From: Elusimicrobiota bacterium
GTDB taxonomy: Bacteria; Elusimicrobiota; Endomicrobiia; Endomicrobiales; JAPLKN01
DNA: 64,000 bases
Direction of reading: 5' to 3'
Assembly (NCBI GenBank): GCA_042562855.1
Contig: JBHPNE010000005.1
Coordinates: 154 to 64,153 of the forward strand
The notes under the pieces were generated by a model, which saw nothing but the letters and a program-made list of their open reading frames with translations, was not told the origin of the DNA and ran no database searches. Below, in pieces: positions 18,063 to 21,382 of this stretch. The position numbers and the translations under genes were made by a program. Numbering within the stretch: the first letter of the stretch is position 1; each line of letters begins with the position of its first letter.

Positions 18063-19130
18063 ATGAAATTAAAAGAACTAGGATTTGACAGCTGGTTTGA
18101 GAAAAAATTAGGCGATATTCCGATTAAGGACTGTAGTATTGCAAGAGTTTCGGCAGTTGAAAAGGATTCGTGCAGTGTTTTGGGTGAATTTGGAGAGGTA
18201 ATTGCAAGTATCTTGGGAAAACTTCGTTATACTGCTGAGTCAAAAGAAGATTTTCCGGCAGTCGGTGATTGGGTGTTTGTACAGTATGTAGATAATAATA
18301 CTCAAGGTGTAATTCATGGAATATTGCCTAGAAGATCGGTTTTAAAAAGGAAAAAACCGGGACAAAAATCTGAGTACCAGCTGATTTCCTCCAACATCGA
18401 TACAGCATTTATTATGCAGTCTTTGACAGAAGATTTCAATATAAGAAGACTTGAAAGATATCTTATTGCAGTAACTGAAGGCGGGATCGAGCCTGTAATA
18501 TTATTAAGCAAATGTGACCTTATATCAAATAAAGAAATAGACAATAAAATTCAAAGTATCAGTGATTATAATAAGTACAAGATCATTTCGTTTAGCAATA
18601 AGACGGGAGATGGGATAGGTAACATTGCAGACGTTATTAAACCCGAAAAGACATACTGTATCGTAGGGTCCTCCGGCGTTGGTAAAACCACTTTGTTAAA
18701 CAAGCTAATAGGCGAAGATAGATTTAAGACCGGCGAAATAAGGGAAAGTGATGGAAAGGGAAGGCATATAACAAGCAGAAAAGAGTTTGTAGTTCTTCAA
18801 AACGGAGGATTGATAATAGATACCCCGGGTCTTCGGGAATTTGGAAATATAGAAGCAGATGCAGGCCTGATAAATACTTTTCCCGATATAATTGAACATG
18901 CATCGGATTGTAAGTATGTTGATTGCACTCATTCAAACGAACCCGGCTGTGCGGTAGTTAAAGCCATAGCTGAGGGAAAAATATCTGAAAGCAGGTTCAA
19001 GAGCTATTTAAAATTGAAAAAGGAATCGGATTATAATAAACTCACTTATCTCGAAAAAAGGAGAAAAGATAAAAAGTTCGGAAAGTTTGTTAAAAAAGCG
19101 TTGAAACATCATTGGAAGAGAAGAGGCTAA
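18063..19130 (+). CDS. rsgA: ribosome small subunit-dependent GTPase A
   Basis: PAVGDWV OB domain, SKCDL, GSSGVGKT, GRHIT, DTPG and CKYVDCTHSNEPGC Zn site. Confidence 0.93.
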   Translation: MKLKELGFDSWFEKKLGDIPIKDCSIARVSAVEKDSCSVLGEFGEVIASILGKLRYTAESKEDFPAVGDWVFVQYVDNNTQGVIHGILPRRSVLKRKKPGQKSEYQLISSNIDTAFIMQSLTEDFNIRRLERYLIAVTEGGIEPVILLSKCDLISNKEIDNKIQSISDYNKYKIISFSNKTGDGIGNIADVIKPEKTYCIVGSSGVGKTTLLNKLIGEDRFKTGEIRESDGKGRHITSRKEFVVLQNGGLIIDTPGLREFGNIEADAGLINTFPDIIEHASDCKYVDCTHSNEPGCAVVKAIAEGKISESRFKSYLKLKKESDYNKLTYLEKRRKDKKFGKFVKKALKHHWKRRG

Positions 19131-19152: not shown

Positions 19153-19181
19153 TTGATATTTTTTTACAAAATTGGTATCTT
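19153..19181 (+). promoter_or_regulatory. sigma70-type promoter of the histone gene
   Basis: TTGATA (19153-19158), 17-bp spacer, TGg-TATCTT (19176-19181). Confidence 0.5.
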
Positions 19182-19215
19182 CTTGGCGTAAAACTAAAAT
19201 TGGAGGGTTAACAAC

Positions 19216-19395
19216 ATGGCAGAGATTCTTGCAGTAGTAAGCAAAGTTAAGAAGATGGTAAAAGATGCAGGTTTAAGAACAGGAGCTGATTATATAGCTT
19301 CTCTTTCAATTAAAATTGAGGAAATTGTAAAAGCCTCTATCGAAAAAGCAAAAGCAGACGGAACAAAGAAGACGTTAGGTTCAGAAGATATCTAA
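19216..19395 (+). CDS. bacterial histone-fold protein (59 aa; absent from the ORF track)
   Basis: GGAGG RBS at 19202-19206; MAEILAVVSKVKKMVKDAGLRTGADYIASLSIKIEEIVKASIEKAKADGTKKTLGSEDI matches the bacterial histone pattern (xxSKVKxxxK...AKAxGRKTVxxxD) of Bdellovibrio Bd0055 as I recall it. Confidence 0.85.
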   Translation: MAEILAVVSKVKKMVKDAGLRTGADYIASLSIKIEEIVKASIEKAKADGTKKTLGSEDI

Positions 19396-19402
19396 ATATC
19401 TG

Positions 19403-19774
19403 GTGTCAAAAGAAAAAATTACTTTTGAAGAGTTTGAAACAATTATTGAGAATTCTGTTAACGCTCTTCCTAAAAAGTTCAAAGATATACTGGATAAAAA
19501 CCATATCAAGCTTATTCCCCGCGATGACTTGCCGGAGTCGATTAGAAGTAAATACCCCGGGAAAGTAGTATTCGGCATATTTATCGGTGTGCCTTATGGC
19601 CGATTTTTCCATGTGGCCACTGAGCCGACCCGGATAGAGCTTTATAAAAAAAGCTTTGAAAAGGTTTTTGACGATCCTGATGAGATAAGGGAACAAATAA
19701 TCAAGACCGTTATTCATGAAATAGGGCACTACTTCGGGTTTTCGGAAGAAGCGATACGAAAGTTAGGTTATTGA
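19403..19774 (+). CDS. minimal zincin-like metallopeptidase (Zincin_1/DUF1025 type)
   Basis: GIFIGVP, PTRIELY and TVIHEIGHYFG motifs. Confidence 0.85.
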   Translation: MSKEKITFEEFETIIENSVNALPKKFKDILDKNHIKLIPRDDLPESIRSKYPGKVVFGIFIGVPYGRFFHVATEPTRIELYKKSFEKVFDDPDEIREQIIKTVIHEIGHYFGFSEEAIRKLGY

Positions 19775-19864: not shown

Positions 19865-21382
19865 ATGAAGATCTATCTTGCCGGATATAATGTCGATACC
19901 GTTGTGCTCAGCGAGCTAAAAGAAAAGTATGGTGATCGTACAGATATTACTCCTGAAGTAATATCTGCTGCTTATGCAAGAATAAGCCGCGATCCAAGAT
20001 CGATTAATGAAATAAGAAAAGACGCCCGCCTGGAAGTTGAACGTACAAGAAAATCGAATGAAACTATAATATTTAAAATGGGACATCATTCGGTTGCTGA
20101 ACATGCGGTATTCAATCTTGATATTGTTGGCCTTTCAAGACTTGCGATGGAAGAGCTCGAAAAATTCCGACTTTCTTCATTTACAGAAAAATCTCAAAGA
20201 TACATTACTTTAGATAAAGATTTTGTTATTCCTGAAGAAATTAAAAATACTCCTTTAGAAAAAGAATTCGTCGATATAGTACATCTGCAAAACAATGCCT
20301 ACCATGAGTATTACGGAATCTTAAAAAGTTATGTATTCAAAAAATATTCCGAACTCGCTTCTGACCCTAAAAAGCATAATTTACTTGAAGGCTGGGCAAA
20401 AGAGGATGCCAGGTATATAACAGCGCTTGCAACCGAATCTCAGGTTGGACTTACCGTAAATGCCAGAAATCTTGAGCTTATGCTAAGGCGGTTTGCGTCA
20501 AGCTCTTTGTCGGAAATTCGGGAGCTTGGAAGCCAGATTTACAGCCAGATTTCTGAGGTCGCTCCTTCAGTGGTTCTTTTCCATCAGGCAAACGACAAAG
20601 ACGTTAAAACTTACCCGGAATTGAAAAAACTGCTGTCTGGAAAAACTAAACAAAAAAGCCAAACAAAATTTTCTGAAGTAAAACTTGTTGATTACACCAA
20701 AATGGGGGATGACGTTATTGCAGCATCTCTCATGCATACCTCGTCAAATATGCCTTTCGATGCATGTTTATCCAGCTTAAAAAAAATGTCTAATAAAGCA
20801 AAAGCAGATATATTTAAAACATCTTTCTCAAATATGCAATTTTATGATTCTGCATTAAGAGAATTTGAATATGCAAATCTCACCTATAATGTAGTATTAT
20901 CATCCGCATGTTTCGGGCAGCTGAAGAGACATAGAATGTCTACAATCACAAGCCAACCTTATGATATTTCGCTTGGTATTACTATCCCTGAGTCTATTAA
21001 AGAGATCGGCAAAGAAAAACACTTTAAAGAAATTATTCTTAAAACAGAAAAAATATATGCAAAAATGTTAAAAGATGTGCCTTTGATTGCGCCATATATC
21101 CTTACTAATGCGCACAGAAAACGGGTTCTTATACGCCTGAATGCCCGGGAGATGTGCCATATATCCCGTCTTAGAGAAGATGCGCATGCTCAATGGGATA
21201 TAAGAAATATTTCTTCAAAAATGAGTGTGCTGGCAAAAAAAGCAATGCCTCTAACATTTATGATGTTGTGCGGAAAAGATAAATACAACGAAACTTATCA
21301 AAAAGTCTTCAGTAAATCGCCCAAAATTATTGAGGCAGTTTTACCGGGGGCAAGAAAAATAAAGGAAGGTGTGAAGTCATGA
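19865..21382 (+). CDS. thyX: FAD-dependent thymidylate synthase, tandem double-domain form
   Basis: AYARISR, MGHHSVAEH, SFTEKSQRY, EDARY and NARNL in domain 1; LKRHRMS, NARE and HAQWDIR in domain 2. Confidence 0.85.
   Translation: MKIYLAGYNVDTVVLSELKEKYGDRTDITPEVISAAYARISRDPRSINEIRKDARLEVERTRKSNETIIFKMGHHSVAEHAVFNLDIVGLSRLAMEELEKFRLSSFTEKSQRYITLDKDFVIPEEIKNTPLEKEFVDIVHLQNNAYHEYYGILKSYVFKKYSELASDPKKHNLLEGWAKEDARYITALATESQVGLTVNARNLELMLRRFASSSLSEIRELGSQIYSQISEVAPSVVLFHQANDKDVKTYPELKKLLSGKTKQKSQTKFSEVKLVDYTKMGDDVIAASLMHTSSNMPFDACLSSLKKMSNKAKADIFKTSFSNMQFYDSALREFEYANLTYNVVLSSACFGQLKRHRMSTITSQPYDISLGITIPESIKEIGKEKHFKEIILKTEKIYAKMLKDVPLIAPYILTNAHRKRVLIRLNAREMCHISRLREDAHAQWDIRNISSKMSVLAKKAMPLTFMMLCGKDKYNETYQKVFSKSPKIIEAVLPGARKIKEGVKS

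Follow-up and report, generated by a model that had tools for sequence, protein, structure and literature searches.

The characterisation of bacterial histones reportedly goes back no further than 2023 and is confined to Bdellovibrio and Leptospira; Elusimicrobiota are listed in the papers concerned as a clade that has retained the gene. The nearest known system to the gene described here is HBb (= Bd0055) of Bdellovibrio bacteriovorus (PDB 8fvx, 8cmp, 9ezz, 9f0e), which belongs to the 'bacterial dimer' class. According to excerpts of PMC11390915, this class was defined by sequence clustering and not by predicted structure, alpha3-truncated histones are defined by having just 3-4 residues in alpha3, and Elusimicrobiota are among the main hosts of 'bacterial dimer' histones. 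Histones of HBb/Bd0055 type have already been reported from Elusimicrobia in the available part of PMC10627809, the preprint of which names a supplementary cladogram of Elusimicrobia in its list of legends. Simulations of HBb rank its DNA-contact residues in the order N22, R57, S9, T53, T8, S24, K10, K12, K52 and K16, and these contact residues are described as conserved in relatives from Elusimicrobiota (both in passages of PMC11317129).

Three further histones serve as points of comparison. HLp of Leptospira perolatii (9qt0-9qt2) is a bacterial face-to-face (FtF) tetramer that is alpha3-truncated and ends at F63, one residue after its clamp residue D62 (PMC12701072, in the part available). 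HU is absent from Leptospira, and the histone has been reported as replacing it. HTkC of Thermococcus kodakarensis (9f2c) is an archaeal face-to-face histone. The archaeal nucleosomal histones of HMfB type (PF00808) share the histone-fold topology and the KT motif of loop L2 with the protein described here (PMC10627809, PMC11317129), but the bacterial class has a shorter alpha2 and alpha3 and is without the tetramerisation His and the sprocket Arg (PMC11390915, PMC10627809), as far as the accessible portions of these papers go.

The locus and its signals

The window, i.e. the whole stretch of 64,000 nucleotides of Elusimicrobiota DNA that was analysed, belongs to an Endomicrobiales-type assembly of 1.12 Mb in 54 contigs with a completeness of 60.5%. 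The features in and around the histone gene are listed below by their positions in the window.

18063..19130, RsgA GTPase gene, upstream of the histone gene
19153..19181, + strand, promoter-like site 1 (TTGATA, 17 nt, TATCTT, with TG before the -10; 9/12 matches)
19172..19200, + strand, promoter-like site 2 (TTGGTA, 17 nt, TAAAAT; 9/12 matches)
19202..19206, + strand, Shine-Dalgarno sequence GGAGG, 9 nt 5' of the ATG
19216..19395, + strand, predicted histone gene of 59 codons plus TAA, alpha3-truncated 'bacterial dimer' histone of HBb/Bd0055 type
19403..19774, + strand, Zincin_1 (PF06262) gene, GTG start, 123 aa, HEIGH motif, E 1.3e-15
19865..21382, + strand, ThyX gene, 505 aa, downstream of the zincin gene

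The histone frame begins with ATG at 19216 and closes with TAA at 19393-19395. Its translation is identical to the 59-residue protein of the original prediction, and the open reading frame, the GGAGG ribosome-binding site and the zincin gene 7 nt after the histone stop were all found as described there. The gene had also been called unannotated. It does fall below the ORF-length cutoff of the earlier reader, but the exact protein is already present in a predicted-protein collection (as P0001), and gene callers do find it. Relatives of the protein are deposited as 'hypothetical protein'. Genes of this kind get overlooked because they are short and fall below the Pfam histone threshold.

Promoter-like elements of its own had been attributed to the gene as well. 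Two sigma-70-like sites are indeed present within the 85-nt spacer 5' of the histone ORF, but they are weak evidence, as the surrounding AT-rich 1.2-kb region gives 11 such sites versus 3.6 +/- 1.7 in shuffled sequence. The site at 19172..19200 is less likely to be used for the histone gene, because a start about 7 nt downstream falls on or after the GGAGG; of the two candidates, only 19153..19181 would keep the GGAGG within the transcript. No terminator-like site was found in a site scan of the gap between the histone and zincin ORFs, so the two genes are probably co-transcribed at this locus. The 505-aa ThyX protein holds two Thy1 (PF02511) stretches and is about twice the usual length; this layout suggests a flavin-dependent thymidylate synthase that has been fused or duplicated in tandem.

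For comparison, 110 related-genome loci were gathered, of which 94 were distinct after removal of duplicates, the window's own locus included. Clade-specific patterns were used to collect the extra loci, so the outcome that all of them are from Elusimicrobiota is uninformative on other phyla.

Relationship to known histones

The window's protein was compared with PDB sequences by a single-sequence search (phmmer) and by a search with the clade family profile A1. Three solved histones were matched:

HBb/Bd0055 of Bdellovibrio (8fvx, 8cmp): E 1.6e-8 with the single sequence (residues 1-55), 2.1e-13 with profile A1 (residues 1-58)
HLp of Leptospira (9qt0): E 0.085 with the single sequence, 4.6e-8 with profile A1
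HTkC, archaeal (9f2c): E 0.0025 with the single sequence, 4.3e-7 with profile A1

Identity to HBb amounts to 26 of 56 aligned columns, counted from the phmmer alignment. BLASTP to the HBb-like library protein P0169 gave 43% identity at E 5e-11. Searches of Pfam and NCBIfam assigned 0 families to the window's protein. PF00808 (CBFD_NFYB_HMF) gave sub-threshold matches to 6 of 71 clade members, the best at E 0.022, and the HU/IHF model PF00216 (Bac_DNA_binding) gave no match to the histone protein. Taken by sequence, the protein is very probably an alpha3-truncated 'bacterial dimer' histone of the HBb/Bd0055 class. The matches to 8fvx and 8cmp bear out the identification as a Bd0055-type bacterial histone in the original prediction, and the Bd0055 layout given there agrees with the aligned PDB sequence.

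The window's protein and HBb have a nearly identical N-terminus and alpha1 (MAE.L.V.SKVKK..K, including S9, K10, K12 and K16), both read AKADG at the end of alpha2, and the KT of L2, the clamp residue Asp58 and a hydrophobic residue 59 are kept. A short alpha2, a truncated alpha3, a modelled homodimer and the presence of HU in the same genome are further common traits. Unlike HBb, the window's protein has K51 for R51, E57 for R57, R21 for N22, V8 for T8 and G23 for S24; its L1 is one residue shorter, one extra residue (T50) precedes L2, and the few C-terminal residues after D58-I59 are missing (59 aa versus 64-66 in the PDB chains, which may include tags). HTkC resembles the window's protein in its 59 aa, its MAE start and the same layout, but it is archaeal, has an Arg in its GRKTL motif and is described as tetramer-forming in the part of the source that was accessible.

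The earlier reading of L2 as TKKTLGSED is correct as sequence, but it is not specific to this gene. The stretch K51-K52-T53-L54-G55-S56-E57-D58 aligns with R51-K52-T53-V-M-A-R57-D58 of HBb (numbering of HBb from an excerpt of PMC11317129), with the extra residue T50 preceding the motif in both the profile alignment and MAFFT. RKTxxxD in its literal form, which is conserved in the class but does not define it, is thus absent, with K52, T53 and D58 kept and the Arg replaced by K51, and the L2 motif is best written KKTLxxED in place of RKTVxxxD. Column 51 holds K in 90 and R in 4 of the 94 loci, while T53, E57 and D58 each occur in 94/94. The exchange of Lys for Arg at the clamp is, from these alignments, conservative and clade-wide and no peculiarity of the window's gene; K51 stands where HBb has the clamp Arg and probably still pairs with Asp58.

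The protein ends one residue after the clamp residue D58, and a variant fold had been proposed from this early ending. The wider family, collected by a profile search of the whole library, comprises 547 representative clusters at E <= 0.001. Among 77 singlets (76 of 149 newly listed representatives, 55-72 aa in length, plus the window's protein; the other 73 were longer or shorter representatives, i.e. doublets, fusions and fragments, and were omitted from the counts), the chain runs on past the Asp for one residue in 30 and for two residues in 20. As HLp does the same, the early ending does not speak for a variant fold: a single residue beyond the clamp Asp is what these sequences most often have, and HBb is one of the longer ones. 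At the clamp column, the same 77 singlets have R in 61 and K in 10.

The library proteins of the wider family (P0073, P0082, P0116 and others) also include many doublets, which have two histone stretches in 118-136 aa. Fusions were seen of RRM_1 with a histone (P0116, 189 aa) and of DUF5805 with a histone (P0073, 150 aa). One member of 1336 aa with C2H2 zinc fingers (P0149) is probably a spurious family match.

Structure models and mode of DNA binding

The AlphaFold2 monomer model has a mean pLDDT of 78.1 and a pTM of 0.46, with helices at residues 2-17 and 23-48 and a short, unstructured C-terminal tail of 11 residues at low confidence. It resembles what a histone-fold chain modelled outside its dimer should look like. 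Together with the chain length and the ending just after D58, it gives the class layout of alpha1, L1, a long alpha2, L2 and an alpha3 of 3-4 residues in a protein of about 58-65 aa. Searched against the PDB with Foldseek, this model had no match at E <= 0.001; among histones, 9f2c came first, at rank 13 of the list (E 6.0, TM 0.47); a 59-residue two-helix monomer without its dimer is a poor query. The three-dimensional histone fold is therefore inferred from sequence homology together with the dimer model.

The homodimer model, built from the family alignment with two copies of the chain, scored 0.56 against 0.00 for the best control. Of 30 proteins solved as one-chain pairs, 20 reach this mark, as does 1 of 23 solved as single chains. 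Contacts coincide between the runs to at least 96%, and the partner pLDDT is at least 80. The tightest contacts (I34-I34, L30-I37 and V38-L30) form an antiparallel crossing of the alpha2 helices, and R21, T22 and G23 touch T53, L54 and G55 of the other chain (21:53, 23:53, 23:54), the way L1 and L2 pair up in a histone handshake. HBb dimers are solved, and the pass of the dimer model may reflect likeness to them; the model indicates resemblance and not binding.

Sequence, model and analogy to HBb point to one overall explanation, to which we give a probability of about 80%: the gene encodes a genuine histone of the HBb/Bd0055 class that acts as an HBb-type DNA-binding homodimer alongside HU. 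In the model, two chains form a symmetric head-to-tail homodimer whose alpha2 helices cross at I34, with L1 (R21-T22-G23) of one chain packed on L2 (T53-L54-G55) of the other. By analogy to the work on HBb, this dimer would bind the DNA backbone without sequence specificity, gripping it with the first turn of alpha1 (S9, K10, K12, K16) and with the paired L1-L2 loops (K52, T53 and probably also R21), and would bend or compact DNA as a nucleoid-associated protein alongside HU. For the mode of action taken by itself, a DNA-bending dimer as in HBb is slightly favoured.

The HBb contact residues S9, K10, K12, K16, K52 and T53 are kept in the window's protein and are invariant or nearly so in the clade; within the Ser/Lys patch of alpha1, S9 and K12 are invariant in A1, and K10, K13 and K16 are conserved to at least 90%. 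The two residues that rank highest in the HBb simulations are changed, N22 to R21 (invariant in A1) and R57 to E57, the latter with reversal of charge and in all 94 loci. Further changes at HBb contacts are T8 to V8 and S24 to G23. These changes at contact positions are of more note than the one at the clamp. In effect, the paired loops have lost one positive charge in L2 and gained one in L1, and the net charge is about +2 (11 K/R versus 9 D/E by our own count).

Because R21 and E57 stand at two top contact positions, the DNA-binding geometry may differ from that of HBb. A stronger form of this argument would make the Elusimicrobiota histones a distinct subtype with a rewired DNA-contact surface and a DNA geometry or an assembly different from that of HBb, on the grounds of the invariant E57 and R21, the Lys at the clamp and the one-residue shift of each loop; R21, for example, could take the minor-groove role, and E57 could bridge to K51 or to a neighbouring dimer. 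We regard such a subtype as unlikely. If true, it would be a third bacterial histone mode beside the bending by HBb and the wrapping by HLp.

A quite improbable alternative to the bending dimer is action like the FtF tetramers HLp and HTkC, in which a pair of dimers, held together by the end of alpha2, L2 and alpha3, would wrap about 60 bp of DNA. The family profile does match HLp (4.6e-8) and HTkC (4.3e-7), and the window's protein shares with HLp the truncated alpha3 and the ending one residue after the clamp Asp. However, the match to HBb is much stronger than that to HLp, both with the profile (2.1e-13 versus 4.6e-8) and with the single sequence (1.6e-8 versus 0.085). The tetramer residues R49 and N53 of HLp are not kept: R49, N53 and R55 align with K44, the variable position 50 (T50 here) and K52, respectively, in a mapping that is approximate owing to a nearby gap. 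In addition, the available part of PMC11390915 describes bacterial dimer histones as lacking the tetramer residues and reports no confident multimer larger than the dimer.

Coating of DNA as an end-on nucleohistone filament without bending is likewise given little credence. This mode was proposed from the first co-crystal of Bd0055 with DNA (PMC10627809, in part), and the window's protein belongs to the same family as the protein for which it was reported; later crystal, solution and simulation work on Bd0055/HBb favours bending by dimers (excerpts of PMC11317129 and PMC11390915). The present data do not separate filament from bending.

Distribution, neighbourhood and conservation in Elusimicrobiota

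The histone profile matched in 88 of 301 sampled genomes of the phylum (76 of 234 high-quality genomes; 56 of 98 by genus). In most families, nearly all members have the histone. A profile search found it in 0 of 89 genomes of one large family of the window's order, many of them 99-100% complete, and it is near-absent in two other families (2/88, both weak partial matches inside a 589-aa frame, and 2/22). These gaps look like lineage-specific loss; elsewhere in the phylum, the persistence of the histone is vertical-looking and wide, as far as the profile matches indicate.

HU (PF00216) was found in 289 of the 301 genomes, including the window's own (E 9.2e-23), and is kept in the histone-poor families (83/89, 86/88 and 20/22). 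In view of these counts, the histone would work beside HU, as in Bdellovibrio, and would not replace it. A role as substitute for HU, as in Leptospira, is rejected on the same figures: Leptospira is without HU, and Elusimicrobiota keep it. The original prediction had inferred a histone-based chromatin, which is overstated given this prevalence of HU.

The gene neighbourhood was annotated on one representative per cluster. Conservation of the linkage between histone and zincin had been named as a check; it was run, and the linkage did not hold. Zincin, RsgA and ThyX genes were beside the histone gene in 0 of 29 other loci (within +/-1.5 kb) and in 0 of 109 when loci with +/-3 kb were added, a genome of the same family included. 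A functional histone-zincin module is rejected on these counts. No universal neighbour of the histone gene was found among the 94 distinct loci.

These results weigh on the reading, very unlikely in our view, that the protein has the histone fold but a main role other than global DNA organisation, e.g. as an adaptor or as a partner or substrate of the zincin protease. It would fit the 7-nt gap to the Zincin_1 gene with no terminator between the two, the presence of E57 in place of the main DNA-contact Arg of HBb, the low net charge, and the remark in a passage of PMC11390915 that not every histone-fold protein need organise genomes. Against it stand the absence of an adjoining zincin gene from all 109 other loci, the lack of any universal neighbour, and the near-invariance of the alpha1 Ser/Lys patch and of the KT of L2, which are DNA contacts in HBb.

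The commonest neighbour, seen in 40 of the 94 loci, was a methyltransferase gene (PF02636, Methyltransf_28) that lies downstream of the histone gene and has nuo genes after it; it is absent from the window. In these 40, the PF02636 gene is the nearest same-strand downstream gene (e.g. L087:3300-4301, L052:2666-3118). A nuoA-like gene (PF00507) lies within the flank of 52 of the 94 histone loci. In the PF02636/nuo subclade, these annotations place the histone gene first in a complex I gene cluster. Four of the first 30 loci (L002, L007, L011 and L023) have a gene for a Rex-like redox-sensing repressor (PF06971 + PF02629; annotated at L007:859-1494) immediately upstream of the histone gene.

A search of a collection of 5.8 billion proteins gave 72 candidates, 71 of which are relatives of 57-69 aa with 60-88% identity; wherever the source gives a name, it is Endomicrobiales, Elusimicrobia or Elusimicrobiota. 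The frame is intact in all 94 distinct loci, with 59 aa in 35 and 60 aa in 59; its start codon is ATG in 91 loci and GTG in the other 3. An SD-like word precedes the gene in 89 of the 94 loci, and GGAGG itself in 58. Mean column entropy at codon positions 1, 2 and 3 is 0.55, 0.37 and 1.43, a pattern that is, on these alignments, one of purifying selection on the protein. That the 59-codon ORF is a chance ORF or a non-coding region is of negligible probability: shortness and the lack of a curated-family match are all that would suit it, and against these stand the intact frames of the same length, the excess of variation at third codon positions, the SD-like words and the match to a solved histone at E 1.6e-8. 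A truncated or broken gene is likewise rejected, as its length is the norm of the clade.

By all sequence comparisons made here, the gene is thus real and conserved and encodes a short histone of a class already published, and such genes were known from its phylum before. A literature search on bacterial histone/Bd0055 and on Elusimicrobi- histone fold found no work devoted to an Elusimicrobiota histone. Mildly new are the clade signature, i.e. the KKTLGxED C-terminus with R21, E57 and the one-residue shifts in both loops, and the gaps in distribution within the phylum; the exchange of K for R and these gaps may, however, already be visible in the HMM logo and cladograms that supplement PMC11390915 and PMC10627809. 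The description of the clade is useful for the choice of constructs in biochemistry and leaves the picture of bacterial chromatin unchanged.

Two minor observations concern the histone matches themselves. Eleven genomes of the phylum carry, in open frames of 56-194 aa, a second sequence that matches the histone profile but is far more divergent (E 1e-7 to 8e-5), e.g. G130:C22:39170-39328, G078:C37:13556-13720 and G119:C4:37280-37447; judged from the profile scores, it may be a second histone paralogue. Of the loci L064 and L105, one belongs to a metagenome-assembled genome (MAG) with the title Candidatus Endomicrobium trichonymphae and the other to a MAG with the title Ignavibacteria bacterium; the contigs may have been mis-binned or mislabelled, or the two loci may depart from the distribution given above.
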